32,562 bases of DNA from PVC group bacterium (GCA_043804695.1 JAZDIV010000152.1:1-32562), one strand, 5' to 3'; shown: positions 8,223 through 31,838, numbered from the stretch's first letter. Made by a program: numbers and translations. The notes: generated by a model not told the origin, from the letters alone.

Positions 8223-8441
8223 TTACGCGTATACCAGTCGGCCCTTCGGTTGCGGAACGGGCCGACCAAGCTCCTTGGCCGTTTTAATCCACTCCTGAAT
8301 GATTTGCTCCGCGTTCGCGAGAGCCTCATGGTATGTCTTGCCGTCTGCCATGCAACCCGGGAGTTCCGGCACCTCGGCGACGAACGCGTCATCTTCCTCA
8401 CTCCAGAAAATAATGATCTCGTATCTTGAATCCATGATCAT
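8223..8441 (-). CDS. hicB: HicB-family antitoxin
   Basis: YEIIIFWSEEDDAFVAEVPELPGCMADGKTYHEALANA is the canonical short HicB signature. Confidence 0.92.
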   Translation of the reverse strand: MIMDSRYEIIIFWSEEDDAFVAEVPELPGCMADGKTYHEALANAEQIIQEWIKTAKELGRPVPQPKGRLVYA

Positions 8442-8692
8442 TCCCCCAATCTCAGATTGTATTGCAAAATTACGCCACGCACCTGCTTGACTTGGTACGC
8501 TTTTCCTTTGCCGTTTTTGGGATGCAGGTTCAGGATCTCTTCTACTCCGGTCATTGTGAAGATGTGGTGGTCTCCTCTGATGCGTTCATCAAACCCGATC
8601 TGCCTGAGAAGTGCACACAAACCGTCAAAGGGCACATTGGCGTCCGATCGGCGCATCAGAATATGCCGGTATAGTTTCTCGTGCTTTCCCAT
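8438..8692 (-). CDS. hicA: HicA-family toxin
   Basis: GFDERIRGDHHIF...ILNLHPKNGKGKAYQVKQV; overlaps the hicB start. Confidence 0.9.
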   Translation of the reverse strand: MGKHEKLYRHILMRRSDANVPFDGLCALLRQIGFDERIRGDHHIFTMTGVEEILNLHPKNGKGKAYQVKQVRGVILQYNLRLGE

Positions 8693-8850: not shown

Positions 8851-8922
8851 GGCGAACGACAAAGCTCACTGGAAGGGATGGAGCGCAGCGGAATTGCCAA
8901 CCAGTAAAGCGCCTTGTTATAT
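8851..8922 (-). mobile_element. Integron attC recombination site
   Basis: Minus strand: R'' ATATAAC, 5-bp spacer, L'' GCTTTACT(GG), central loop, (CC)AGTGAGC L', 6-bp spacer, R' GTTCGCC; the L arms pair with one extrahelical base. Confidence 0.8.
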
Positions 8923-8974
8923 GCCTGCCTAATGCGCTATCCTTCTCGTGTATTTGAATAATCTTGCCATTTCT

Positions 8975-11900
8975 TCAAGTGGCATTTGCGGCTTTGGCCT
9001 CCTCCCGGATCTTCTCGTAGACCTCCTTGAGGAGGTGTTGGCTGACGGCCGCGCGGAACTGGTCCTCGTTCATGAACTTGGCCGTGATCTCCTCGTTCTG
9101 ATCCATTCGATCGATAAAGAGCCCCTCCAGGGCCTTGCGGAAGACATAGCCGAAGTTTTCCATCGTATTGGCGAGCGCGGCTTGACGAAGACTGCTGTCG
9201 GCTACGGCATCCTCTCGTATCGACTCGAAAAAGAGCTGATCGCCAGGCTTGAACTCCGTCCCAAATCGCTCGTTGAGAATGTCGATCAGTTTGGACAGCT
9301 CGATCTCATCACCTCGGGTGACACCGGTTCCCACTGACGTGGGCCCCGACACCTCATAGCGCGCGCCCGGTTCCATGACGATGGAACCCTCGCCGATCTT
9401 CTGCAATCGGTAAAACTTGAGCGCCACGTCATCGTCAAAGTTATAGATCGGACCCCGGTCGCCCCGGGGAAGTTTGGTAAGCAGAAACCGGATGTATGAG
9501 TACAGCTTCTCCAGGTCGGAGTCCTGGAAGGGAATCACCTGCGACATGAACGAATAGAGGTTTCTGAAAGCGACCAGTGTCTTGCGGAACTTCTCGCGGA
9601 CTTCTTCATCAAGATCATTGTATCTGCTTACCGCCGGATCGATGCAGGCGTTCATCCGGGCGTGGTCAGCGGGTGTTTGATTCCGTTTTGGTCTATAGAA
9701 GACCTTGCAGAATTCCTCGACCTCGGTCTGGTAGTAGACCTGATATCCGTCCAATTTGGCTTGAAGTTCATAAAGCTGTTTCGGCTCTGCCCGCTCGCCG
9801 ATGATCGTCTGCTCGTAGTAGGGCTGGAAGGCCTCTAATATCTCTTCGGGTTCATTGACGAAGTCGAGAACAAAGGTGTCTTCCTTGCCCTGATGGGTGC
9901 GGTTGAGCCTGGAGAGGGTTTGAACCGCCTGAAGTCCCGCCAGCCGCTTGTCCACGTACATGGTATGCAAAAGCGGCTGATCAAATCCGGTCTGGTATTT
10001 CTCCGCCACAAGAAGCACCTGGTACTCTTCCGTTCCATAGCGTTCGGGAAGCTCCTTCTCGCGGATGCCGTGGTTCATGCCGACTTCCGTGTATTCCACG
10101 CCGGGTGCGTCCGGATCGATCACCGTGCCGGAAAAAGCGACCAGCGTCTTGATCCCCGTGTACCCTTTCTTGGCGATGTACTTATCGAAAGACTGCTTGT
10201 ATCTGACCGCGTGGAGACGGCTGGAGGTGACCACCATCGCCTTGGCCTTTCCGCCGATCTTGTGCATGGTGAAGTGGCGGAAATGCTCGACCATGACCTC
10301 GGTCTTCTGGGCGATGTTGTGCGGGTGGAGACTCATGAAGCGGGCGAGCGCGCGGGCGGCTTTGCGCTTGTCCACCCGGGGATCGTCTTCGATGGACTTG
10401 ATCAGCCGATAGTAGGTCTTGTACGTGGTGTAATTTTGGAGAACGTCGAGGATGAAGCCCTCGTCAATGGCCTGCCGCATGGTGTAGAGATGGAAAGGCT
10501 GGGGCTTGCCGTCCCTGTCTGCCGTGCCGGCACAGGCAGGCGCTCCCGGAGTGCCGAAAACCTCCAGTGTCTTGTATTTGGGTGTCGCGGTGAAGGCGAA
10601 GAAACTGATGTTGGGCTGATGGCCGCGCTTGGCCATGGCCTTGAGGATTTCCTCTTCGTAGTCGGGCAGTCCTTCTTCCTCGGCTTTCGCCCGGGCCTCT
10701 TCCTTGATGGCGGCGCCGGCGAGCACGCCCTTCAGTTCGGTGGCCGTTTCGCCGCCCTGGGAACTGTGAGCCTCGTCAACCACCACCGCGTACCTGCGCA
10801 TGGGCAGATCGCTTATTTTCTCGGTAACGAAGGGGAACTTCTGGAGAGTCGTGATCACGATCGGCACGCCGGACCCGAGGGCTTCGGCCAACTGGGTCGA
10901 GTTGATATCGATTTTCCGGACCACGCCCTGCTTGTGCTCGAACTGGTAAATCGTGTTCTGGAGCTGCTGATCGAGTACCACCCGGTCCGTGACCACGATG
11001 ATCGAGTCGAAGATCTTCTCGTCATTGTCATTGTAAAGACTGGCGAGCCGATGGGCCAGCCAGGCGATGGAGTTGGACTTGCCGCTGCCGGCGGAATGTT
11101 GGACGAGGTAATTGGTTCCGGTTCCGCGTTCGCGAGCGTCGGCCACGAGTTTCCGCACGCAATCCAACTGGTGGTAGCGCGGAAAGATCATCGTCTCCCG
11201 CTTCACCTTCCTGCCGCCTGCCTGCGCCGTGCCTTGCGCGGCAGGCAGGCGGAACTGTTTCTCCTCGACTTGCAGATGGATGAACCTCGCCAGGATGTCG
11301 AGGAAGCTGTGCCGCTCCAGAACCTTTTCCCAAAGGTAAGCGGTCTTGTAGCCGTCGGGATTCTCCGGGTTGCCCGCCCCTGTCTGCGTGCCACGCACAG
11401 GCAGGCCGCCTCCGCGGCCCATGTTGAAGGGAAGAAAACAGGTGCCGCGGCCGGAAAGCCGTGTGGTCATATAGGCCTCGTCGGTGTCCACGGCGAAATG
11501 GATCAATGTACGCTTTTTGAACTGAAAGATCGGGTCCGCCGGGTCGCGGTCATTTTTGTATTGCGTGATCGCATGCCGCCAGGTCTGGGCGGTCATGGGG
11601 TTTTTGAGCTCCAGCGTGGATACGGGGATACCGTTCAGGGCCAGGGTCACATCGAGGGTATTGCCGCCTGCCTGTCGCGACGCGGCCGATAGTCGTCCCG
11701 CCGCGTATTCCCGCTTGAGCCATTGACGACCGAAACCGGTTTTCAGTTCGTCTTCCCGCTTGACGGCACTCTCGCGGGACTCGAATGCCTCCCAATGAAT
11801 GGGTTCCACAGGTAAGCGAGAAGCAGTCCATGTTACCTGCTTGGCGTGATGCTCACCAAGACGCCTTGGAAAGTTATCGGTTTGGCCAATGTAAAAGGAA

Positions 11901-12370
11901 TCATCTATACACTTCAAAACATAGATGCAGAACTCTCCTGCCTTTGGTCGCGGCGCAGGCAGGTGCTTGGCCGAGTAGCGGAGCTGGCGAATGATAGTGA
12001 GGCGATTGGCCGTGTAGAGCTTTTGGGTGTCCGGGTTCATTCCGCTCGCCGGTGCGAAGTAGGCCACGCGGAAGAGCTTGCCGAAGCATTTGAACCCATG
12101 CCGAAGGACGGTGAGGCATCCCTCGTGTTCGGAATTGAGCGCCCGGCAGAGGTCGTCCAGGAGTGTGGCCTCGGCCTTGTCCTTCTGGATGCCCGCAAGG
12201 TATTCCCATTCCCCGGGCTGGGTTGTCTGGATGAAAGAAATCACATCCCGCGGGAAGAGGCCGCGTTGCGGGTCGTAAGTGTCCCGGTCGCCCTTTTCGT
12301 AACCGCCTGCCGTGATCAGGTGGTGTTCGATGGCGGTCTCGAATGCGTGTTCGGTATGTTGGCCCGGCAT
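8975..12370 (-). CDS. hsdR: Type I restriction enzyme R subunit with in-frame insertions, including a GIY-YIG domain
   Basis: Nuclease motif LDVTLALNGIPVSTLELKN; Walker A QHSAGSGKS; VDEAHSSQ; FTATPK; QTGFDQP; QTLSRLNR. Start ATG 12370 (MPGQHTE) after GGAGG. Confidence 0.95.
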   Translation of the reverse strand: MPGQHTEHAFETAIEHHLITAGGYEKGDRDTYDPQRGLFPRDVISFIQTTQPGEWEYLAGIQKDKAEATLLDDLCRALNSEHEGCLTVLRHGFKCFGKLFRVAYFAPASGMNPDTQKLYTANRLTIIRQLRYSAKHLPAPRPKAGEFCIYVLKCIDDSFYIGQTDNFPRRLGEHHAKQVTWTASRLPVEPIHWEAFESRESAVKREDELKTGFGRQWLKREYAAGRLSAASRQAGGNTLDVTLALNGIPVSTLELKNPMTAQTWRHAITQYKNDRDPADPIFQFKKRTLIHFAVDTDEAYMTTRLSGRGTCFLPFNMGRGGGLPVRGTQTGAGNPENPDGYKTAYLWEKVLERHSFLDILARFIHLQVEEKQFRLPAAQGTAQAGGRKVKRETMIFPRYHQLDCVRKLVADARERGTGTNYLVQHSAGSGKSNSIAWLAHRLASLYNDNDEKIFDSIIVVTDRVVLDQQLQNTIYQFEHKQGVVRKIDINSTQLAEALGSGVPIVITTLQKFPFVTEKISDLPMRRYAVVVDEAHSSQGGETATELKGVLAGAAIKEEARAKAEEEGLPDYEEEILKAMAKRGHQPNISFFAFTATPKYKTLEVFGTPGAPACAGTADRDGKPQPFHLYTMRQAIDEGFILDVLQNYTTYKTYYRLIKSIEDDPRVDKRKAARALARFMSLHPHNIAQKTEVMVEHFRHFTMHKIGGKAKAMVVTSSRLHAVRYKQSFDKYIAKKGYTGIKTLVAFSGTVIDPDAPGVEYTEVGMNHGIREKELPERYGTEEYQVLLVAEKYQTGFDQPLLHTMYVDKRLAGLQAVQTLSRLNRTHQGKEDTFVLDFVNEPEEILEAFQPYYEQTIIGERAEPKQLYELQAKLDGYQVYYQTEVEEFCKVFYRPKRNQTPADHARMNACIDPAVSRYNDLDEEVREKFRKTLVAFRNLYSFMSQVIPFQDSDLEKLYSYIRFLLTKLPRGDRGPIYNFDDDVALKFYRLQKIGEGSIVMEPGARYEVSGPTSVGTGVTRGDEIELSKLIDILNERFGTEFKPGDQLFFESIREDAVADSSLRQAALANTMENFGYVFRKALEGLFIDRMDQNEEITAKFMNEDQFRAAVSQHLLKEVYEKIREEAKAANAT
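10514..10540. repeat. 27-bp in-frame palindromic element in hsdR (PACAGTADR)
   Basis: cctgtctg-ccgtgccggca-caggcagg. Confidence 0.9.
11217..11249. repeat. 33-bp in-frame palindromic element in hsdR (LPAAQGTAQAG)
   Basis: cctgcctg-cgccgtgccttgcgcgg-caggcagg. Confidence 0.9.
11379..11405. repeat. 27-bp in-frame palindromic element in hsdR (LPVRGTQTG)
   Basis: cctgtctg-cgtgccacgca-caggcagg. Confidence 0.9.
11667..11963 (-). mobile_element. 297-bp in-frame insertion in hsdR: GIY-YIG nuclease domain bracketed by two 27-bp palindromic elements
   Basis: Flanking units 11667-11693 (cctgcctg-N11-ccgatagt) and 11937-11963 (cctgcctt-N11-caggcagg). Core CIYVLKCIDDSFYIGQTDNFPRRLGEH...AVKREDELKTGFGRQWLK. 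Confidence 0.88.
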
Positions 12371-12461
12371 CAGGCATCCTCCGTTACAAGTCGTGTCGCC
12401 AGTTTGTCGCGAACTATGTCGCAATCCGTCGCGATTCTCTGTCGCGATATGTCGCGATAGT

Positions 12462-13556
12462 TCATAAGCCTTTACCTTTCAGTATATAAAGCGATTGCCT
12501 TGCCGCTCCCTTCCGCCCGACGAGACCCAGGTTTTCCATCTGCTGCAAATCCCGCTGGAGGGTTCGCCTGTTCATGCCAGGGCACAGGACCTCCATGTCC
12601 CGGATATGCATTTCGGCGTGGTCGAGAAGGAAACGCAGGGCCTTTGTCTGCCGCTCGTTCAACTTGTGTTGCCTGGCGATCAAGTCGGCCTTCATCGCCT
12701 TCTTGACGCATTCGGACACCTCGCCGAGCTGCGTGGCCAACCCATCGACGAAGTATTCGAGCCAGCCGGTCATGTCCATGCCGCGATCGCGCACGCCCTG
12801 GATCGCCGCATAGAACGCCGACCGGTCGCGGTCGTAATATTCGCTGATCGTGAACAGCCGCTTGAAATCGTACCCCGCCCGATACAGGCACAGCATCGAC
12901 AGCAGACGCGACGTCCGCCCGTTGCCGTCCAGGAACGGGTGGATGTGGACAAGCTGGAACTGTGCCACGCCGCTGACCAGGACCGGATGCACCCCTGCCT
13001 GCGCCGCGTCCCGCGCCGCGGCAGGCAGGTGGCCCGACCCGTTGAGCCAGGCCACCAGCTCCTTCATCAGCACCGGCACGTCATGGGCGGGCGGCGGGGT
13101 GTAGACCGTCTGGCCCGTGGCTGAGTTGACCACGTAGTTCTGCACCGTGCGGTATTGACCCGGGGCGCCCTTGCCGCCGCGCGCTCCCTCGACCAGCCGC
13201 TTGTGAATCTCGCGGACCAGTCCCTCGGTGATGGGTGCGCCGCTGTCGAGGTATTCAGAGACGAACTTGAACGCCCGGCGATAGTTCAGCAGCTCCCGCG
13301 CATCATCCGGGTCGGCCTCGGGCACCGGCTCGCCGGCCAGCAACCGCTCGGCCTGGTCCAGCGTCAGGTGCGTGCCCTCGATGTGCGTCGTGTGGTGGGC
13401 TTCGAGCACCAGCGCCCGCTCGCCCATCGCCCGCACCCAGTCTTCCGACAGCTTTGCCGCCTCCAGAAACCCCCGGGCGCGTTCGATCCGCGTCAACGCC
13501 GCCGTGATAACGTTGGTGATGGTGAACTTGGGCTGCAAGCCGCGCTTGGCCATCAT
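12462..13556 (-). CDS. Fic-family protein with C-terminal wHTH
   Basis: [12 protein letters not shown]ic motif; TTHIEG; C-terminal [15 protein letters not shown]. Confidence 0.93.
12994..13029. repeat. 36-bp in-frame palindromic element in fic ([12 protein letters not shown])
   Basis: cctgcctg-cgccgcgtcccgcgccgcgg-caggcagg. Confidence 0.9.
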
Positions 13557-14884
13557 GCCACCTCCCCGCGAACATCGATCTTGCCCGTCACCGCCGCAGA
13601 GATGAGGGCGGTGCGATATTCTCGCAGCGTTTCGATGGAATGATTGATCATCTCATCCAAGGCATCGATCCGCGCCGTCTCGCGGTCGAGGAATGCGGCG
13701 ATGGCTCGCTGCTCTTCTATGGAAGGCAGCGCAATGGGGATGTTCTCGATAACGTTCATGCCAATGTTCTGCTGGGTTCCGAAACTCCATCCGAGTTCAA
13801 TGGACTGGAAAAAATTCTTCGATTTCATGAAGAAAAATACAAACGGTGTAATGGCCTTCTTGGGGTCTGGTCTGATTGCAGCGAGCGGCGACCAGATGTT
13901 GAACTCATCATCGGTATCTACAAACGCCACGTTACCAGTGGTAGCTCCGGATTTGATCAAGTAGATGTCACCTTTAAGAGGCTTGTATTTCTTTGAGAAC
14001 CGAGCGTGATCTTCTGGCGAAATAAACCCTCGCATCTTTGCAAAATCAATCCTGTCATTCTTGATCGCTTCCGCAGAAATAAACGGGATACCCTCATCCA
14101 GTAGCTCGGGCGTTTCATGCGGGCCATCAGTTACTGGAACGATTGTAATCCTCTTTATGGCAATGACCTCCCAATGCTTCGGCACATCCCCCAGCCATTC
14201 GATGCCGGAGTCTTTCATCTTGGCATTGGGGTCGAGGCCTTTGGTGACGGCGTGGCTGATGAGAGCGGATCGCTTCTCCTGGAGGAGTTCTATCTGCCGC
14301 TGTTTCTTTTCGATCAGCCCATCAATCCGCGCCGTCTCGCGGTCCAGAAACGCTGCTATGGCACGTTGCTCATCGAGTGGAGGTGAAACCAAGTAGGTTG
14401 AGGTCAAGCAATCTCGGCTTAGTTCTGTGAATGTTGAGCCTTGCCCCAAAGATTGAAGTTTGGGACGTGCAGCGAAAAGCTGGTAGAAGAAGAAACGCCT
14501 GTCATCATCACCACGAAACACAAGGCTGCGACACCCCTGGTTCGTACACAAGCGGACACCCGCAATTACTAAATGCCCAATCGGTGCACGTGTAGACAGA
14601 ACAAGACTGCCCTCAGCAGCAAGAGTCACTCCACAACTTGCATAACCTTCCTGGGTAATCATCCGGCTCGTGACATCTAATGTTGATCCACGCAGATTGC
14701 CAAGATCATCTGGCGTTGCCCACGGAATGTCGCCATCCCAATATTCCGGATTACCACTTTTAGGCGTCGCGCCGTTGAGGGTTGTGAATGTTCGCTTCAG
14801 TGCCTTGATCTCCCACTGCTCGGGCACATCCCCCAGCCATTCCACGCACGATGGCCTATAATGCGGATATGCGCGGCGGCTCAT
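13553..14884 (-). CDS. hsdS: Type I restriction-modification specificity subunit
   Basis: Two TRDs; repeated conserved segments EWLGDVPxxW and [20 protein letters not shown]-terminal [14 protein letters not shown]. Confidence 0.95.
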
Positions 14885-16065
14885 GACTTGCCCCCTTTGG
14901 CAGGCCCTTTTTTCCTGCTCCTCGGTTTGGCGAGCTTCTTCCGGGCGTCCTCCGGGCGAACCGTCAAGTTTTTCTTGACGGTTGCCTTTGTGGTTGCCTC
15001 GCCTGCGTCATCGCCCCGATTCTCGATAGCCAATCGGGAACGCTCAATGGCCTCATGCAGTTTGCGTTTCAGAACATCCTTAGGAGGTAATACAGTCAAG
15101 TACTCGGCGACGTGGATGCCGGAACGGCCCAGTTCGAGCAGTTCAATCTGTTCGGCATTCTTGCCCGCGCAGAGGATAATGCCCAAGGGTGAATCTTCGC
15201 CCGGCTTGCGCTCGTGTCTGTCGAGCCAGCGCAGGTAAAGCTCCATCTGTCCCTTGTGATCGGGCCGGAACTTGTCGAGTTTGAGTTCCACAACCACCAG
15301 ACGCCTCAGATCGCGATGGAAAAAGAGCAGGTCCAGGTAAAAATCGTCATGATCCACGGTGATGCGTTTTTGCCGGGCGACAAAGGTGAATCCGATGCCC
15401 AACTCCATGATGAATGCTTCCAACTCGCGCAGGATGGCCGCTTCCAGATCTTTTTCCTGAAATGCTCCTTTGAGTCCGAGAAAGTCGAGCAAATAGGGAT
15501 CGCGGAACACCAGATCGGGAGTCATCCGATCTTCTTTCCGCAAGGCTTGCAGTTCCAGTTTCGCCAACTCGGCCGGTTTCTTGGAAAGGGCGGTGCGCTC
15601 GTACAGCATGGAACCGATCTTCTGCCGTAAGGTGCGGACGCTCCATCGTTCGACTCGACACATTTCTGCGTAGAAGTCGCGCTGTAAGGGGTCCTTGAGG
15701 GGGATCAGAGCGATGAAATGGGTCCAGCTCAATTCTCGTATCAGCGATACGACAATTCGCTCGTCGGGGAATACCTCGGCGAATTGAACCATGCGGCGGA
15801 GGTTTTTCTCTGCAAAGCTGCCACCATATTCGTGCGTCAATTCTTGTGACAGTGTGGCAAGAATCTGTTTCCCGTAATCGCCGCGCTTCCCCTTCAATAC
15901 GTCCTGATTGATCCTGCTGCCGATCCGCCAATGCAGCATGGTCAACCCGGCATTCACCGTGGCAGCCACGGCAGCCCGGGTTTCCTCGATCATTTGCCGG
16001 ATGTCGCCAAGCAATTGATTGGGGATTGCGGCCAAATCGGAAGGCTTTACCGGCTGTTCGTTCAT
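14881..16065 (-). CDS. YhcG/DUF1016 PD-(D/E)XK nuclease-domain protein
   Basis: Motifs LSWTHF, RDPYLLDFLGL, GFTFVARQKR, DLLFFHRDLRRLVVVELK, GQMELYL; start ATG 16065 (ATGA overlap). Confidence 0.92.
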   Translation of the reverse strand: MNEQPVKPSDLAAIPNQLLGDIRQMIEETRAAVAATVNAGLTMLHWRIGSRINQDVLKGKRGDYGKQILATLSQELTHEYGGSFAEKNLRRMVQFAEVFPDERIVVSLIRELSWTHFIALIPLKDPLQRDFYAEMCRVERWSVRTLRQKIGSMLYERTALSKKPAELAKLELQALRKEDRMTPDLVFRDPYLLDFLGLKGAFQEKDLEAAILRELEAFIMELGIGFTFVARQKRITVDHDDFYLDLLFFHRDLRRLVVVELKLDKFRPDHKGQMELYLRWLDRHERKPGEDSPLGIILCAGKNAEQIELLELGRSGIHVAEYLTVLPPKDVLKRKLHEAIERSRLAIENRGDDAGEATTKATVKKNLTVRPEDARKKLAKPRSRKKGPAKGGKS

Positions 16066-16274
16066 TCCGTGACCCCTGCTTGCCGCGCTTTGCTCGGCGC
16101 AGGCAAGTCCGCGAGCATGTCGGCGAGTTCCTGCTCGGTCTTCTTTAGATCGGTGCTGTATCTCAGGCGGCGAACCTCCCAATGAGTTGGTATATCACCC
16201 AGCCACTCGACTCCCGACGGCTTGTACGCCGGGTAGGTTGCTCGTTTGCTTGCTTTTGCGGCGGGGCGGCTCAC
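16062..16274 (-). pseudogene. Chimeric remnant: hsdS N-terminus fused to a duplicate of the hsdM C-terminus
   Basis: YPAYKPSGVEWLGDIPTHWEV (HsdS start) joined to TDLKKTEQELADMLADLPAPSKARQAGVTE (HsdM end); 16062-16154 matches 16828-16920. Confidence 0.85.
16075..16107. repeat. 33-bp palindromic element (duplicate of 16841-16873)
   Basis: cctgcttg-ccgcgctttgctcggcg-caggcaag. Confidence 0.85.
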
Positions 16275-16831
16275 GATTTGCCCCCTTTGCCGGACCTCTT
16301 TTCCCCGCCATTATTTCGGCTTTTGGGCGACTTCTTTTTCTTCGTCGGCTGTTTCTTGCCTGCCTGTGCGGCGCACGCAGACAGGCGCCGCGTCTCCAGC
16401 ATCTTTGCCGAAGTCCGCAGGTCTTCTATGTACCGCGCCTCGGCCTGGGCTTCCGCTTTCAGCCGCCGCCGTTCCGCGAAGGCGTCGTATTGTTCCTGCG
16501 CCCATTCGCAAGCATCGTCGCGTCTGACCGTGCCGGGGCCGGAAAGCACCGGCAATTCGGTGTCGCGCAGCCGCTGTACCGTGCGTGTCCCCTCCGGTCG
16601 AACTGACAAGAATTCCTTGTGAGTTGCCTCGGGAAGAAGTTCTTTTTCTTCGTATATGTTTTGGATGTGAAGACTTATGTTCTGCTGGGTCGTCTGGTAG
16701 AGCCCGGCCATGAGATTCTGCGTCAGCCAGACGGACTCATCCTGAAGCCGAACCTCAAGCCGGGTCTCGCCGGAATCGGATTGATAAATCAATATCCTGG
16801 TATCATCCGGTGCGGGTAAGTTCTTGCTCAT
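16271..16831 (-). pseudogene. RhuM-family protein with internal in-frame deletion
   Basis: RhuM N-terminus (ILIYQSDSGETRLEVRLQDESVWLTQ...NISLHIQNIYEEKEL) jumps at EGTRTVQR to a C-terminal-like segment; only 186 aa. Confidence 0.75.
16359..16385. repeat. 27-bp in-frame palindromic element in rhuM (LSACAAQAG)
   Basis: cctgcctg-tgcggcgcacg-cagacagg. Confidence 0.9.
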
Positions 16832-18966
16832 TCCGTCACCCCTGATTGCCGCGCTTTGCTCGGCGCAGGCAGGTCCGCGAGCATGTCGGCGATTTTCTGC
16901 TCGATCTTCTTGAGATCGGTCTCGATCTCCTCCAGCGGTCTTGGCGGGGTGTATTTGTAGAAGTAGCGGTTGAAGTTTACTTCGTAGCCGATTTTGGTCT
17001 TGGACTCGTCCACCCAGGCACTCGGAACGTGGGGTAAGACTTCCCTCTCCATATACTTGTCCACGTCTTCTTTGAGTGGAACGTTCTCGTAGTCGCGCAG
17101 TTCGGAATCGGGCTCTGGATTTCCATTAGCGTCGGTGCAGATCACGGCCGTTTCGTCTCGCTCAGCCAGGGCCAAAAGAATGGCCTTGAAGAGCGCGGCG
17201 GGAACAGTGATCCTGGTCTTTTTGAATGCGACCTTCATCTGTTTTGAGAACTCGTCGCGGTCTTTTACAATGTCAAGCGGCGTGAGGGTTTTCAGGGCGG
17301 CCAGGATTTCCTCTTGCTGCTGGCGGCCCGCTTCGATCTCAGATTGTGCGGCCCTGGTATCCTTTTGTTTCTTGCTGGCGGCCAGATTCGCAAAAGCCTT
17401 CGTCTCTTCAAGTCGCGCGATACGTTCGTTATCTACAGCAAAGTTGAGTCTGAGCGGCCGCTCGACCGTGATGCGGCGGTAGCCGAAATCCTCGTTATCA
17501 AAAACACGAATGTGCTCTGAATCCTTGAGATTCCCATAGAGCCTGGTGATCTCGTCGCGCTGATCGTCGCAAACTTCATTTCGCTTGTTGCCGAGGGATT
17601 TGCGCATCTTTTTGTAGAAGGTTGTTCCGTCCACCAGTTGAATCTTGCCCCTGCGCCCCGGTTCCTTGCGGTTGGTGATGATCCAGAGGTAGGTGTAGAT
17701 GCCCGTGTTATAGAAGAGTTGATCCGGCAGGGCGACAATGGCCTCCAGCCAATCGTTCTCGATGATCCAGCGGCGGATTTCACTCTCTCCCGACCCGGCC
17801 GCACCGGTAAAGAGCGGCGAGCCGTTGAAGACGATCCCAAGGCGGGTGCCTGCCTGCGCCGACCTGCCTGTCGCGTTTGCGACGCAGACAGGAGCTTCGG
17901 CAGGCAGGCCGCCTTCTTTTGGGCCCCTGCCTGCGCCGTGCTCGTCGCGGCAGGCAAGTTTCATCTTGCTGATCATGTGCTGGAGAAAAAGGAGCGAGCC
18001 GTCGTTGATTCGGGGCAGTCCCGCACCGAAACGTCCTCCGAAGCCCTGTTCCTCGTGTTCGCGCGTAATAAAGTCGGCTTCCGGTTTCCACTCCACACCG
18101 AAGGGCGGATTGGCCAGCATATAATCGAATTTGTGGCTGGGGAACCGGTCGTCGGTAAAACTGTCGCTAAAAGCAATATGATCAATGTCCTGGCCCTTGA
18201 TCATCATGTCCGAGCCGCAGATGGCGTAGGCTTGAGCGTTATAGTCCTGGCCGAAGACTTCCAGACGGGCGTCGGGGTTGAGTTCGCGCACGTAGTCCTC
18301 AGCCACGGACAACATGCCGCCCGTTCCGCAGGCCGGATCATAAAGGGTCCTTATGATTCCTTTGGTAGTAAGGATATCGCCGTCCGGCATAAAGAGGAGG
18401 TTCACCATCAGACGAATAACCTCGCGGGGAGTGAAGTGATCGCCGGCCTCCTCGTTCGATGCCTCGTTGAACCTCCGAATGAGTTCTTCGAAAATGTAGC
18501 CCATCTCAATGTTCGAGACGGCGTCCGGGTGCAAGTCGATATCACAGAACTTGGACACGACCAGATAGAGCCGGTCGGCCTTGTCCATTTTTGCGATGTG
18601 TTCCTCGAAGCCGAAGTTCTCGATGATCTCGCGGGCGCGTGTGGAGAAACCCTTGATGTAGTTGGTCAGATTGGCGGCGATGTTGTTCGGGTCGCCCTTG
18701 AGCTTTTCGAAGGTGAAGCGGCTGGTGTTATAGAAAGGCATACCCGTGACCCGGCAGAGAATGGGATCAATGTTCTTTACTTTGCCGCCCGAGAGCTTCC
18801 TCTGTTGTTCGAGGACCTTGTCCTTGGTGGGTTCCAGAACGCAGTCGAGCCGCCGCAGAACGGTCATGGGAAGCATGATGTCTTTGTACTGGTTTGGCCG
18901 GTAGGGTCCGCGAATAAGGTCGGCAACCGACCAAATGAAGCTAACTTTTTCGCCGAAGTTGTTCAT
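16828..18966 (-). CDS. hsdM: Type I restriction-modification N6-adenine methyltransferase with in-frame insertions
   Basis: AGDHFTPREV; motif I YDPACGTGG; motif IV LANPPFG; FNGSPLF; LFYNTGI. Confidence 0.96.
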   Translation of the reverse strand: MNNFGEKVSFIWSVADLIRGPYRPNQYKDIMLPMTVLRRLDCVLEPTKDKVLEQQRKLSGGKVKNIDPILCRVTGMPFYNTSRFTFEKLKGDPNNIAANLTNYIKGFSTRAREIIENFGFEEHIAKMDKADRLYLVVSKFCDIDLHPDAVSNIEMGYIFEELIRRFNEASNEEAGDHFTPREVIRLMVNLLFMPDGDILTTKGIIRTLYDPACGTGGMLSVAEDYVRELNPDARLEVFGQDYNAQAYAICGSDMMIKGQDIDHIAFSDSFTDDRFPSHKFDYMLANPPFGVEWKPEADFITREHEEQGFGGRFGAGLPRINDGSLLFLQHMISKMKLACRDEHGAGRGPKEGGLPAEAPVCVANATGRSAQAGTRLGIVFNGSPLFTGAAGSGESEIRRWIIENDWLEAIVALPDQLFYNTGIYTYLWIITNRKEPGRRGKIQLVDGTTFYKKMRKSLGNKRNEVCDDQRDEITRLYGNLKDSEHIRVFDNEDFGYRRITVERPLRLNFAVDNERIARLEETKAFANLAASKKQKDTRAAQSEIEAGRQQQEEILAALKTLTPLDIVKDRDEFSKQMKVAFKKTRITVPAALFKAILLALAERDETAVICTDANGNPEPDSELRDYENVPLKEDVDKYMEREVLPHVPSAWVDESKTKIGYEVNFNRYFYKYTPPRPLEEIETDLKKIEQKIADMLADLPAPSKARQSGVTE
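16841..16873. repeat. 33-bp in-frame palindromic element at the hsdM C-terminus (LPAPSKARQSG)
   Basis: cctgattg-ccgcgctttgctcggcg-caggcagg. Confidence 0.85.
17849..17908. repeat. Nested pair of 30-bp palindromic elements in hsdM
   Basis: Outer cctgcctg-cgccga^agcttcgg-caggcagg; inner (17863-17892) cctgcctg-tcgcgtttgcgacg-cagacagg. Confidence 0.9.
17926..17958. repeat. 33-bp in-frame palindromic element in hsdM (LACRDEHGAGR)
   Basis: cctgcctg-cgccgtgctcgtcgcgg-caggcaag. Confidence 0.88.
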
Positions 18967-19026
18967 GAATCCTCAATGCCAGATCATAATCAGCATCCGC
19001 GTTTGGTGTCCAAGCCGGTTCAGGGC

Positions 19027-19086
19027 ATATAACGAATAGTGTTTTATCCAATCGTGCGGAGCATGATGGAAAAAACACGGTTGAAC
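19027..19086 (-). mobile_element. Degenerate attC-like site upstream of hsdM
   Basis: Minus strand GTTCAAC (RYYYAAC), imperfect hairpin GTGTTTTTTCCATCATGC/GCACGATTGGATAAAACAC, then GTTATAT core. The left spacer is atypically short. Confidence 0.55.
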
Positions 19087-19225
19087 TGAGCCGCGCAAAC
19101 AAACGCAAAAAAAAGATTACCCGGCTATGGGTATTCTATTGGAAGTGGTGATGGCGGGCAAGAGCGAAGACGGCTTCCGGGCATTTGCTGGAAGGGGTGA
19201 AGAAGGCTCAGAATGAGCCCGAAAC

Positions 19226-26026: not shown

Positions 26027-27097
26027 ATGCCCGGGTTGAAGAGAAAAACAAGGAGAGTAAAGCAGGCCGGCCTTCCTCCCGGAACCCTGGTCTACGTCGG
26101 GGATAAGCAGGAAGAAGCGCCCCGGATCACCGTCATCGATTACGATGAATCGAAGTACCGGGAGGAAGAAGTCGCCGCCGTCGAGGACTGTTTCCCCTTT
26201 AAAGACCGGCCGACGGTAACCTGGATAAATATCGACGGACTGCGCCGGGTCTCGGTCATCGAACAGATAGGAAAGCACTTCGGTCTCCATCCCCTGGTCC
26301 TGGAGGATATCGTTAATACCTACCAGCGTCCGAAGATGGAGGACTTCGGCCAGTACATCTTCCTGGTGCTGAAGATGCTTTCCTATAACGATAAGGAAAA
26401 GGAAATAGTCATCGAGCAGGTCAGCCTGATCCTCGGCGCCGGCTTTGTTATCTCGTTCCAGGAGCAAGTCGGGGACGTATTCGATCCCATCAGGAAAAGG
26501 CTGAGGGAACAGAAAGGCCGGCTCAGGAAAGCGGGCGCCGACTACCTGGTCTATTCCCTGATCGACATGATCGTCGACAACTACTTCACTATACTGGAAA
26601 AACTGGGTGATCGCATAGAAGACCTGGAAGACGTACTGATCTCCCGGACCGGACCGAGATCCCTGCAGTTCATCCAGGGGTTAAAGAGAGAGCTGCTCCT
26701 GCTGAAGAAATCGGTCTGGCCGCTGAGAGAGGTGATCAGCGGCCTGGAAAGAGGCGAATCCCCGCTCATCTCCGACTCGACGGGAATCTACTTCCGGGAT
26801 GTGTACGACCACACCATCCAGGTCATCGACACCGTTGAGACCTACCGGGACATGGCCTCCGGGATGGTCGATACCTACCTCTCCGGCCTCAGCAATCGGA
26901 TGAACGAGGTGATGAAGGTGCTGACCATCATCGCCACCATCTTCATCCCCCTTACCTTCATTGCCGGCGTTTACGGAATGAACTTCCAGTACATGCCCGA
27001 ACTCAGGTGGCGCTGGGGATACCCGGCGGTTCTGAGCCTGATGCTCCTGGTCGTTCTCGGCATGCTCTCCTATTTCCGGCGGAAAAAGTGGCTTTAA
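26027..27097 (+). CDS. corA: Magnesium/cobalt transporter CorA
   Basis: GLPPGTLVYVG, LHPLVLEDI, QRPKME, YFRDVYDH, GVYGMNF.MPEL signature. Confidence 0.96.
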   Translation: MPGLKRKTRRVKQAGLPPGTLVYVGDKQEEAPRITVIDYDESKYREEEVAAVEDCFPFKDRPTVTWINIDGLRRVSVIEQIGKHFGLHPLVLEDIVNTYQRPKMEDFGQYIFLVLKMLSYNDKEKEIVIEQVSLILGAGFVISFQEQVGDVFDPIRKRLREQKGRLRKAGADYLVYSLIDMIVDNYFTILEKLGDRIEDLEDVLISRTGPRSLQFIQGLKRELLLLKKSVWPLREVISGLERGESPLISDSTGIYFRDVYDHTIQVIDTVETYRDMASGMVDTYLSGLSNRMNEVMKVLTIIATIFIPLTFIAGVYGMNFQYMPELRWRWGYPAVLSLMLLVVLGMLSYFRRKKWL

Positions 27098-30050: not shown

Positions 30051-30261
30051 CGATAGCCCCCTCCTCCGTTTCGTCAGGCGACAGGTGATCATTTGGACGG
30101 CAATCGGATGCTTTAATTCATATTTTCAGCTCAGCGTCTCTTCCCGGTTTAGGCCGGTAAAAATTTACCATGAAAAGCTCTCCCGGGAAAGACGGGATCG
30201 GTTGTTGAATTCATTTCAAAATCCCGCGTAGTTTAGTATGATATCCCAGGAAAGGGTCCGC

Positions 30262-30744
30262 ATGAAAGAAAACAAGATACATTTAAAAAGATGGTTCATC
30301 CCGGCAGCGGCAGTCGGGGGCGTCATCCTCCTTGCCGTCTGGCAGATCCCCCGGATGCGCGAAAAAGTTCGCGCCGACGACCTGAGGATGTACGACTACC
30401 GGGATACCCGGCGGCTGGTCACCCTGACCGCCCGGGCGGCTGATTTGGTCGAGGAGAGAGGGGAAGAAGCATTTAAGGAGTTCAATCAAGAGCCGGAGAG
30501 GTGGTCGCTCGATGGCAACTCCTACCTCTCCAGCCTCAGCAATCGGATGAACGAGGTGATGAAGGTGTTGACCATCATCGCCACCATCTTCATCCCCCTC
30601 ACCTTTATTGCCGGCATTTACGGCATGAACTTCCAGTACATGCCCGAGCTCAGGTGGCGCTGGGGATACCCGGCGGTCTTATTCCTGATGCTTTTAATCG
30701 TGCTCGGCATGCTCTCCTATTTCCGGCGGAAGAAGTGGCTCTGA
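30262..30744 (+). pseudogene. Chimera: membrane-anchored Cache-like sensor N-terminus fused to a duplicate CorA C-terminus
   Basis: TM helix + AADLVEERGEEAFKEF..SYL, then a 224-bp copy (30521-30744) of corA 26874-27097. Confidence 0.8.
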
Positions 30745-30909
30745 ACTAATCTGCCCATTGCTCTCCGAAATTATCTTGCCGCCGGCATCAAAGCGGGGCA
30801 AAAAATTTGTCTGTGTTCATGCCGCCAGGAAGGGAAAAATGAATTTGCCCCGGATGATATGTTTTTTCGAAAATTTCGGGGATATACTGAATATAATTTT
30901 TGAATTTAT

Positions 30910-31838
30910 CTAAGCCCAAGAGTGTCTGGAAACCCGCCAGTGGAGTTTTGCGACGGTTGAAACGGAAAACAAATTCATCGAGGTAGCATTGAAGGTATTT
31001 GGGATCAACGCCATGGTGGGTGCCATTCAACCACGTTTTCAGATTGACGAACGCGCGGTGAATATGATGGACCTGCGTATCGAAGGGATAAAGCTCATGT
31101 CGGTAGAGCGCCAAAGCCGTTTCGGAGTAGCCCTTCCATCCATCGGTATAAACCTCGGTTCCTGGTTCTGCGTTTTCCCCCAAAAAACGACGAATCGAGG
31201 AAGCATCGGCTCGCTGCGTCAGCGCCAGGCGAAGACGCCCCGCTTTTTCCAGGTAGGCTCCATACTTGTCGGTATAGGCGATGACTTCGACCGCACCGAA
31301 AACCAAGGTACTATGCTCTGCCTTGGTTACTCCGCGACCTCTTTTCCATCTGACGGGGCCGCCGACAATGGTTTCATCGGTCTCCACGCGACCCTTCAAA
31401 AGAGATCGCTTGTCGTTAAGCATGCCCCACCGCAGACGGTGCAACACGAACCAAGCCGTCTCGTAACTGCATCCCAATTGACGCTGTAGTTACTTGGCAC
31501 TCATGCCGGGGGTGTGGGTTGCAACTAAATAGGCCGCCCAAAACCAATCTTGTATGGGAAGATGGCTACGATGAAGAATCATCCCTGCAGAGACTGACGC
31601 CTGATGCCCGCATTACTGACATTCGTGGGCATGCCGGCTTGGAAGCTACCAATTCCGCGAACAAATCACACTTCGGACAGCGAAACCCTTCGGGCCAACG
31701 GCTCTGCGAAAGATACTCCCAGCAGGCAGCATCATTTAAAAACCTCTGCCGGAACTCACGCAAGCCGGTCGGAAATGTTGGTCTTGTCATCGGCATAAGC
31801 ATGCCAAAATGTCTCAACCTGCATCAAGTGGATAAGCA
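30910..31838 (-). mobile_element. Decayed IS1595-family element (transposase pseudogene)
   Basis: Zn ribbon RWPEGFRCPKC; VETDET, YTDGWKGY, LKTWLNGTHHGV..YLQCYLDEFVFRFNRR; frameshift and internal TAG/TAA stops near 31490-31660; probable left end TGCTTATCCACTTGA at 31838. Right end not found, so the left coordinate is approximate. Confidence 0.88.

Follow-up and report, generated by a model that had tools for sequence, protein, structure and literature searches.

In-frame, hairpin-ended GIY-YIG nuclease block in a type I restriction gene: candidate autonomous member of a family of translated palindromic elements

Several kinds of mobile sequence share features with the element described here. 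The Rickettsia palindromic elements and PARCELs are palindromic repeats that lie in frame in genes and are translated as peptide insertions; they are reportedly 100–150 bp or longer and restricted to particular lineages, and we know of no autonomous partner for in-frame palindromes of the Rickettsia type. REP/RAYT and IS200/IS605 systems consist of short hairpins flanking a dedicated nuclease gene, with no target duplication and with a preferred sequence at one end, and miniature inverted-repeat transposable elements (MITEs) are short forms of a longer coding element, reduced to its two ends. Homing endonuclease genes (I-TevI, Seg) are selfish nucleases found at conserved sites as presence/absence alleles, and inteins are carried in frame with the host protein. 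The element in question is a 297-bp block that encodes a GIY-YIG nuclease between the two arms of a hairpin and lies in frame in the hsdR gene of a type I restriction–modification (R-M) operon, on a 32,562-nucleotide stretch of DNA from a PVC group bacterium (GCA_043804695.1 JAZDIV010000152.1:1-32562; the whole stretch is called the window below). We lean toward regarding this block as the autonomous member of a widespread and largely undescribed family of in-frame, hairpin-ended elements, with its own nuclease as the mobility enzyme, acting in trans on much shorter palindromes (minis).

An Slx1-like GIY-YIG domain has been reported in an HsdR protein, MCA0838 of Methylococcus capsulatus, near residue 800; an 80%-identical HsdR homologue was without it, and the authors called the insertion recent (Dunin-Horkawicz, Feder, and Bujnicki, 2006; PMC1564403). 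That single case lies at a position other than the one in the window, and the available part of the paper does not mention inverted-repeat ends, minis, other hosts, or a mobile family. Beyond this HsdR case, a search of the full-text literature, with subscription journals lying outside it, turned up no account of such a family, of its ends, or of its minis.

The block, its parts, and its host gene are arranged as follows:

8975..12424, minus strand: hsdR (type I restriction subunit R), the host gene; 1149 codons, open across the element and three minis
11667..11963, minus strand: GIY-YIG element; 297 bp, or 99 codons, in frame in HsdR, with the peptide LPAPRP...RQAG
11947..11963, minus strand: 5′ arm of the terminal hairpin; in the coding direction it starts CCTGCCTGCGCCGCG and encodes LPAPR
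11702..11932, minus strand: GIY-YIG catalytic core; insert residues ~11–87, with the Tyr, Tyr-x-Gly, Arg, His, and Glu conserved
11667..11681, minus strand: 3′ arm of the terminal hairpin; it ends CAGGCAGG, encodes SRQAG, and has A where the family has G
11603..11653, minus strand: HsdR PD-(D/E)xK motif; D258 at 11651–11653, E272 and K274 at 11603–11611

Read in the coding direction, the 99-codon block begins with CCTGCCTG and ends with CAGGCAGG, which together form an 8-nt inverted repeat, as an earlier, sequence-only reading of the window had described; the boundary is ambiguous by one C, the codon-aligned form being 11666–11962. The 8-mer count in the window is 15, against 1.5 expected (maximum of 6 in 100 shuffles), and the paired pattern CCTGYCTG..CAGRCAGG occurs seven times, against 0.00 expected. 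The host protein was identified as a type I subunit R from its HSDR_N nuclease, SF2 ATPase, and T1R_D3 domains and from the presence of hsdM and hsdS in the same operon (Pfam); the true start of hsdR is likely the ATG at 12370 (M19). The element lies 4 codons upstream of D258, the catalytic Asp to which the earlier reading had already assigned it as a neighbor. The D258, E272, and K274 columns are invariant in an alignment of HsdR with nine close homologues, and these residues align with the D..ExK of the solved EcoR124I HsdR, whose catalytic residues we take to be D151, E165, and K167.

The encoded core was supposed to be a small UPF0213/YhbQ-like GIY-YIG nuclease with its catalytic residues in place, and database comparisons bear this out. 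The insert matches the Pfam GIY-YIG family (PF01541) with 50.6 bits against a cut-off of 22.6 (E 2.4e-13), and its AlphaFold model has a pLDDT of 89.6. Its closest solved relatives are the UPF0213 proteins 1ywl (E 1.8e-17) and 1zg2 (E 9.3e-17), followed by Slx1 (E 4e-4); chains of 1ywl, 1zg2, and SLX1 lead both the profile search and the Foldseek search, which places the domain in the UPF0213/Slx1-like clade. Slx1, the nearest enzyme to have been characterized, is a nuclease that processes branched DNA. In the protein alignment of the clade, Y14, Y24, G26, H38, and E70 are invariant and R34 nearly so, and 65–66 of 66 DNA copies retain each catalytic residue (Y, Y, G, R, H, and E). UPF0213/YhbQ-type proteins and Slx1 are thus nearest in sequence, fold, and catalytic residues; however, the UPF0213/YhbQ-type proteins are free genes with their own start codons, and the stand-alone kin are without hairpin ends, whereas the embedded clade has, in addition, LPAP and RQAG linkers and a helix of conserved sequence (LKTGFGRKWLKRE). 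The element has neither a start nor a stop codon of its own and is read through in frame—and, for want of a start codon, the nuclease can be made only as part of the host protein. Although an intein is likewise in frame with its host, the insert contains no Hint or intein domain (GIY-YIG is its only Pfam match), stays in the protein, and, with LPAP at its start and RQAG at its end, lacks the residues usually called for at intein splice junctions.

With respect to internal anatomy, the sequence-only reading was wrong, its description of the block being otherwise confirmed. The block had been taken for a 27-bp element, an 81-codon core, and a second 27-bp element, but a complete mini is present at either end in none of the 66 non-redundant members of the family. 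An inner 8-mer with one mismatch is found at the 5′ end only in the window copy and in that of locus L057, and at the 3′ end in no member; the mini-like inner look of the window copy is due to K-A-G codons that are not conserved in relatives. The consensus of the two arms is instead a single hairpin of 15 bp, starting CCTGCCTGCGCCGCG and ending CGCGGCAGGCAGG, in which 8 bp are followed by a 2-nt bulge on the 5′ side and a further 7 bp, with 94% of 990 cells paired compared with 27–60% in slid controls. The first 15 nt of the 5′ arm are identical in 45 of the 66 members and the consensus last 13 nt in 58. One arm position covaries with its partner (CG 17, AU 15, UG 11, UA 4, other 19), a count that kinship could inflate. 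At both arm/core junctions the linkers are variable in length.

In the 66-copy DNA alignment, interior synonymous third positions are saturated (entropy of 1.65–1.98 bits at fourfold and ~0.9–1.0 at twofold sites), whereas the third positions of the terminal codons are near fixed, at 0–0.43 bits: CTG is kept in 52/57 copies, CCT in 66/66, GCG in 66/66, CCG in 63/66, CGG in 63/65, CAG in 66/66, and GCA in 66/66. Because the terminal codons are near fixed while the interior synonymous sites are saturated, the ends act as DNA sites, and the terminal inverted repeats are, judging from the alignment, selected as DNA and not for the peptide that they encode. By the same kind of comparison, the nuclease is under purifying selection as a protein, since the catalytic residues are kept and 65 of 66 non-redundant copies are stop-free despite the saturated synonymous sites.

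The flanks of the block rejoin precisely. PF01541 is recorded in none of the best 120 HsdR relatives listed (993–1047 residues, 79–90% identical), and 115 of 121 HsdR-family sequences have nothing at or beside the insertion site. Seven of the nine aligned close homologues (87–92% identical) are uninterrupted there, reading RQLRYSAKH-GNTLDV (RYSAKHGNTLDV), the very segment that removal of the block had been said to restore. In a DNA-level comparison with contigs from four metagenome sequencing runs, a contig from run X4 with a related gene was observed to join window base 11665 to 11963, skipping 297 nt with a 1-nt ambiguity, and a second contig, from run X2, skips 298 nt with one other letter. 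No target-site duplication was seen, in keeping with the earlier reading: the flanks rejoin exactly, with an ambiguity of at most 1 nt (the one C). Occupied and empty alleles of the same hsdR site thus exist among close homologues, as is the case for homing endonuclease genes; unlike these, however, the element is associated with no intron (0 Rfam families at E ≤ 0.1 over the operon, 8900–19100), is not free-standing, has no separate DNA-binding domain, has inverted-repeat ends, and occupies many sites.

In HsdR homologues P0019, P0053, and P0062, a different short insert (e.g., IFRPYNTSGKIAAHPSG or AIRPYG) lies one residue from the GIY-YIG site, and unrelated sequences, too, seem to insert preferentially in this HsdR loop. 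HsdR relatives at 79–90% amino acid identity are named from at least six phyla, an unusual promiscuity for the operon; the names on the 80–90% relatives are Dehalococcoidia, Nitrospirota, Nitrospinae, Bacillota, WOR-3, and Sedimentisphaerales.

Two further homologues connect the element with the minis. At the very same hsdR site, P0047 and P0040 have only LPAPRASRQAG and LPAPQSGAKRQAG, respectively, both of mini length, and LPAPRASRQAG is the translation of a 33-nt mini in the phase of the hsdR site. This 33-nt mini occurs in several viral contigs and at locus L078; joining the first 16 nt of an element to its last 17 reproduces it exactly for 9 of the 66 elements and, with one base different, for the window copy. 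Because the arms equal the halves of the 33-nt mini and mini-only alleles occur at the same site, either the coding element is a mini with an open reading frame (ORF) between its arms or the mini is an element without its ORF. Thus, the proposal that the block is an autonomous member of a mobile palindrome system is partly supported: the anatomy fits, with arms that are mini halves and mini-only alleles, but the two bracketing minis on which the proposal had been built fail. By the standards of transposons with terminal inverted repeats and of MITEs, inverted repeats conserved as DNA and short end-derived forms are both found, and target-site duplication is not; moreover, unlike with MITEs, there is no DDE transposase, and the copies are translated.

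The family is widespread and, with few exceptions, embedded. All eight relatives found in genomes (one genome per species; 52–77% identical) lie inside larger frames. Five of them interrupt hsdM (..HVPD|AW..) and two the C-terminal end of hsdS (..DPND|EPAS..); the eighth, a frame-shifted copy with a decayed 5′ end (L008), is at the start of an hsdS. In 1.84 billion cluster representatives, 3511 protein matches were obtained at E ≤ 1e-3 and 269 at E ≤ 1e-10; among the best 150 representatives, 119 continue into host sequence for 20 residues or more on each side of the domain, 111 have an LPAP-like start, and 94 have an RQAG-like end. A metagenome scan with the clade alignment, from which the best 80 of 289 relatives were kept, showed that the flanks of core homologues do carry the hairpin termini, a point on which the earlier reading had called for a check: the exact 5′ 8-mer is present at 58 of the 80 loci, the 3′ 8-mer at 75, and both at 54, with most of the others one base off. 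Neither of the patterns that it had named as contrary to its proposal—HsdR homologues having the domain without palindromes, or a clade without them—was encountered, since the clade has the termini and close HsdR proteins are without the domain. The 54 loci with both 8-mers measure 279–303 nt, with modes at 297 (23 loci) and 285 (13 loci), and 53 are multiples of three, the sole other one having a further mini nested at its end. At L049:2000–2312, a GIY-YIG element has a 27-nt mini just inside its own 3′ arm, with 313 nt between the outer 8-mers. The frame is open through the element at 79 of the 80 metagenome loci.

Pfam assigned 62 host frames from the metagenome loci to HsdM-type (14), DUF1156 methylase-type (14), HsdR (8), SNF2-type helicase (3), PglZ (2), Eco57I-type (2), type III Mod/N6_N4 (2), type ISP (1), and fused M-S (1) proteins, with 4 hosts outside defence (pseudouridine synthase, PAPS reductase-like, HGD-D, and SelR) and 11 with no other domain. 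A second tally, of the first 75 of the 150 cluster representatives, gave 30 HsdS (Methylase_S) hosts, 16 other named hosts, and 29 proteins with GIY-YIG only. In neither tally are the counts independent, as the loci were selected on a single conserved peptide and include many homologous sites. Among the 16 other named hosts are HsdR parts, type III Mod, DUF1156, NOV_C, Fic, PDDEXK_1, and SNF2 proteins, and also two pseudouridine synthases, trigger factor, QueC, and DUF899. Reading the flanks by eye yielded ~26 distinct insertion sites in at least 12 host families, mostly defence genes such as hsdM, hsdS, hsdR, DUF1156, PglZ, type IIG/III, and SNF2. One HsdS-like protein (P0122, 655 aa) contains two GIY-YIG inserts, each with LPA.. 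and RQAG-type ends.

Such hosts, overwhelmingly DNA-binding defence proteins whose ORFs remain intact in 79 of 80 loci, could also suggest an adaptive domain fusion, in which the GIY-YIG domain is a functional extra nuclease domain of restriction, BREX, and DISARM-type proteins and is not, or never was, mobile. A DUF1156 lineage (L088, L093, L094, L098, L099, L101, and L105) lends itself to this explanation, keeping the domain in a 279-nt form at one site (MTG|..|PKN) with the first 8-mer synonymously altered (CTTGCCTG, TTTGCCTG, or CCCGCCTG); for this lineage the explanation probably holds, and the copy may be a domesticated, immobile one. We nevertheless consider domain fusion very unlikely as the general explanation, because the termini are conserved at the nucleotide level beyond coding need, the same cassette occurs in pseudouridine synthase, trigger factor, QueC, SelR, and HGD-D, and close homologues are without it. 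The authors of the 2006 study likewise judged the HsdR insertion in MCA0838, as far as the available part of the paper goes, to be recent and probably unimportant for the host nuclease (PMC1564403).

The insertion sites have a common form. The junction always falls between codon bases 2 and 3, which puts the ORF in phase; GA precedes the element at 16 of the 26 sites and YG most often follows it, giving a preferred 5′-GA|YG, and the insert peptide starts with LPAP and ends with RQAG, the next residue being G, A, or E. In a tree of the 66 copies, grouping is mostly by host site, which fits long residence or homing into empty alleles. Well-supported switches of host gene are also seen: the sister of the window hsdR copy, at 96/84 support, is an hsdM copy within an hsdM-site group, a pseudouridine-synthase copy is nested among hsdR copies, and SNF2, DUF1156, and NOV_C copies form one clade (99/95). 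In the window's own hsdM, the canonical insertion site is empty (HVPS|AW). A tblastn search of the window's own genome returned only the one element copy; the kin genomes searched gave only stand-alone small GIY-YIG genes (11 of them, 25–45% identical), none with hairpin ends, and a single-protein query of viral contigs gave no GIY-YIG relative.

The minis of the window are confined to its R-M operon, which runs on the minus strand of 8975–18966 in the order hsdM, a 186-aa ORF, a DUF1016/YhcG nuclease gene, hsdS, a Fic gene, and hsdR. All of them are multiples of three in length and are read through:

12462..18966, minus strand: rest of the type I R-M operon; fic 12462–13556, hsdS 13553–14884, DUF1016/YhcG 14881–16182, ORF 16271–16831, hsdM 16828–18966
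10514..10540: 27-nt mini in hsdR, phase 0, PACAGTADR; common to homologues P0012 and P0013
11217..11249: 33-nt mini in hsdR, phase 2, LPAAQGTAQAG; absent from 9/9 aligned homologues
11379..11405: 27-nt mini in hsdR, phase 2, LPVRGTQTG; absent from 9/9 aligned homologues
12994..13029: 36-nt mini in fic, phase 2; shares its subfamily with the GIY-YIG element's arms and folds as DNA at −18.4 kcal/mol (z −4.4)
16359..16385: 27-nt mini in the unnamed 186-aa ORF, phase 2, LSACAAQAG
16841..16873, minus strand: decayed 33-nt mini at the hsdM C-terminus, D|LPAPSKARQSG; 5′ arm intact, two mismatches in the 3′ 8-mer
17849..17908: nested mini pair in hsdM, in frame; a 30-nt mini (17863–17892) in the loop of another 30-nt mini, 60 nt in total
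17926..17958: 33-nt mini in hsdM, phase 0, LACRDEHGAGR; one mismatch in the first 8-mer

The nested pair folds as DNA at −22.7 kcal/mol (z −5.5), and HsdM relatives have 3–8 residues where the window has ~47. For the mini at 17926..17958, the comparison sequence is PACRDEERGAGR, from 36-nt minis of L093, L098, and L101. Within 328 kb around 88 relatives, 25 distinct minis were found in 15 loci, all 25 being multiples of three and 21–39 nt long. When these flank minis and those of the window are taken together, the ones inside long frames occur in phases 2, 0, and 1 (15, 11, and 5 cases, respectively) and in both orientations; both orientations, together with the need for a length of 3n, indicate that the minis are translated, and not removed or bypassed at the RNA level. 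They fall into at least two subfamilies: the GIY-YIG-arm type, and a 27–30-nt type whose two ends differ, one being CCTGCCTG and the other CAGACAGG. In contigs of other metagenomes, the window's minis stand in unrelated flanks, along with variants whose loops are 3 nt longer. A pattern scan of viral contigs gave 10 loci with 30–33-nt minis, one of which could be placed in a named gene: in L022 (3–1958, minus strand), a 33-nt mini at 1501–1533 lies in frame (LPAATLAAQAG) in a viral prohead protease/capsid ORF, so that phage genomes carry mini insertions too. The minis resemble the Rickettsia elements and PARCELs in being translated in-frame palindromes, but they differ in being 21–39 nt long, in occurring across phyla, and in having ends in common with a nuclease-coding element.

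These findings bear on an explanation in which the minis are the primary mobile units, moved by something else, and a homing endonuclease gene invaded the loop of a pre-existing mini subfamily, a spot tolerated already, as homing genes do with introns and inteins, homing thereafter by cutting minis or empty alleles that are without GIY-YIG. Such a history would accommodate several observations: the full elements have arms of one mini subfamily only, the minis being more diverse; the hsdR site also has mini-only alleles; one mini may lie within another's loop, as at 17849–17908; the elements cluster by host site in the tree; and many genomes have minis with no embedded GIY-YIG. However, a mini of the matching subfamily would have to have been present beforehand at each of the ~26 sites, the varying linker lengths at both junctions are explained equally well by internal deletion, and the loci show linkage to no alternative candidate enzyme for moving the minis. 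On balance, mini invasion strikes us as unlikely.

A third explanation holds that the hairpins are moved by another enzyme—a Y1/RAYT-type transposase, or a host or phage factor recognizing CCTGYCTG hairpins—with the GIY-YIG gene as passenger or cargo. It draws on the non-coding repeats of the genomes concerned, in which CCTGCCTG-cored hairpins are central. The window's own genome (G000) has about a dozen 44-nt intergenic perfect palindromes with the core CCTGCCTGCCGGCAGGCAGG, flanked by ACCCGATTTAT and its complement (among others at C13:14, C36:11155, C40:34294, C43:11667, C48:63801, C87:20569, C88:23630, and C120:9499); the inner 19–23 nt are a CCTGCCTG..CAGGCAGG hairpin, and the copies lie outside long frames and are not multiples of three. 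In genome G185, which has an embedded copy, a ~225-nt dispersed repeat (loci L112–L129, e.g., L112:1471–1500; 10 copies aligned) has a 30-nt hairpin of the 27–30-nt subfamily near its 3′ end, and three 29-nt hairpin variants stand in a second repeat with other shared flanks. Among extragenic hairpins with this core, some of 19–29 nt are not multiples of three in length. Also consistent with another enzyme are the six Y1_Tnp matches in the window's genome and the IS200/IS605-like ensemble of hairpin ends, absent target duplication, and preference for a short sequence on the 5′ side of the left end. Even so, this passenger explanation seems rather improbable: the nuclease is intact in 65 of 66 copies under saturated synonymous change, unlike a mere passenger; neither the R-M operon nor any locus searched with Pfam contains a Y1 gene; and the element travels between phyla with its host operon. 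The element also differs from REP/RAYT and IS200/IS605 systems in that its nuclease is GIY-YIG and not HUH Y1, and in being intragenic, translated, and present in few copies per genome.

Against the view that the block is an autonomous element mobilizing the minis, a number of observations have to be set, beginning with the dependence within the host tallies described above. To our knowledge, GIY-YIG nucleases are hydrolases, with strand-transfer chemistry known for none of them, and for that reason integration would need a further partner. The commonest mini subfamily (27–30 nt, CCTGCCTGTGCG...) had no full-length partner in 3.4 Mb, in which only pairs of separate minis were found, and its 27-nt minis are no more stable as hairpins than many shuffled sequences (z −0.65 to −1.7). 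Five element-holding genomes have only 0–5 hairpin-pattern matches each, and coding-type minis in the window's genome are almost confined to the R-M operon, so that the genome-wide abundance expected by analogy with REP/RAYT does not hold. The proposed correlation of hairpins with the GIY-YIG clade was examined in 301 genomes of one phylum, 2 of them with an embedded copy and a further 20 with stand-alone relatives (E ≤ 1e-20). It survives only as a slight excess—hairpin matches in 9 of 22 genomes with a GIY-YIG match at E ≤ 1e-20 against 58 of 279 without one—that is weak, not corrected for kinship, underpowered with two embedded copies, and based on a loose pattern that also catches unrelated repeats. 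Genomes G068, G272, G052, and G338 have 5–20 hairpin matches and no GIY-YIG match at E ≤ 1e-20, and 15 of the 23 hairpin matches of G185 are identical ones within its ~225-nt non-coding repeat. Finally, the six Y1_Tnp matches (IS200/IS605 or RAYT-type) of the window's genome lie on other contigs, and another enzyme may act on the extragenic hairpins with this core. The G185 matches were at one point taken for a burst of 23 minis beside an embedded copy, an idea that was rejected because those 15 represent one repeat and not independent insertions.

Taking the block as an autonomous element, its behavior can be pictured as follows. A 279–303-bp unit, a multiple of three in length, with a minimal Slx1/UPF0213-type GIY-YIG domain between the two arms of a 15-bp hairpin, would insert without target duplication, preferably at 5′-GA|YG and between codon bases 2 and 3. 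The host ribosome would read it through as an extra domain, LPAPRP...RQAG, leaving the nuclease as a passenger of the host protein. The GIY-YIG domain is predicted to be the element's own mobility enzyme; given the kinship with Slx1, its likely mode of action would be a structure-specific cut at the stem base of the hairpin or cruciform into which the arms fold, the joining being left to host repair or ligation. Persistence would be mostly at fixed sites, either by descent or by homing into empty alleles, the defence operons concerned being highly exchanged, with an occasional jump to a new site, often in a neighboring gene and here presumably from an hsdM-type site to hsdR. The 21–39-nt stop-free minis, multiples of three with the same outer 8-mers, would be the arms alone, taken as non-autonomous relatives that the nuclease presumably mobilizes in trans. 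Residence in DNA-binding defence proteins may help the nuclease to reach DNA, or may be merely tolerated.

A more far-reaching version would put these elements in a DNA transposon class of their own among prokaryotes, as an "in-frame hairpin transposon" whose GIY-YIG nuclease, a passenger in a DNA-binding defence protein, cuts the cruciform of its own ends, is tethered near its own gene by coupled transcription–translation, and moves itself together with translated MITE-like derivatives, preferably into neighboring defence genes. We put this forward tentatively and regard it as doubtful. If it were true, the autonomous partner missing for Rickettsia-type in-frame palindromes would be supplied, along with a route of transposition that uses no DDE, HUH, serine, or tyrosine enzyme.

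As for the surroundings, the Fic/DOC gene (12462–13556) and the DUF1016/YhcG PD-(D/E)xK nuclease gene (14881–16182) are embedded among hsdM, hsdS, and hsdR, with overlapping stop and start codons. Base composition does not mark the operon off (57.1%, compared with 57.8% for the genome). A HicA-like toxin ORF (8438–8692) adjoins hsdR, and the window also has an IS1595-family transposase gene (30788–31477), a full CorA gene (26027–27097), and a second ORF (30238–30744) matching only the C-terminal third of CorA.

Overall, the block looks like a representative of a largely undescribed family of selfish elements that are translated as part of the host protein. If so, it would be a kind of mobile element outside present classifications, hidden inside reading frames rather than between genes, that needs no splicing and borrows the promoter, the ribosome-binding site, and perhaps the DNA-binding surface of its host. 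Several matters would then become testable, namely the origin and movement of translated palindromic insertions, whether hairpin recognition lets a minimal Slx1-type GIY-YIG nuclease drive transposition or homing, what makes restriction, BREX, and DISARM-type genes preferred hosts, and whether the insertions cripple, spare, or enhance defence. For annotation, such inserts inflate and confuse the records of defence genes through spurious "fusion" architectures. In many enzymes, stop-free hairpin cassettes with lengths in multiples of three mark positions that are tolerant of domain insertion.

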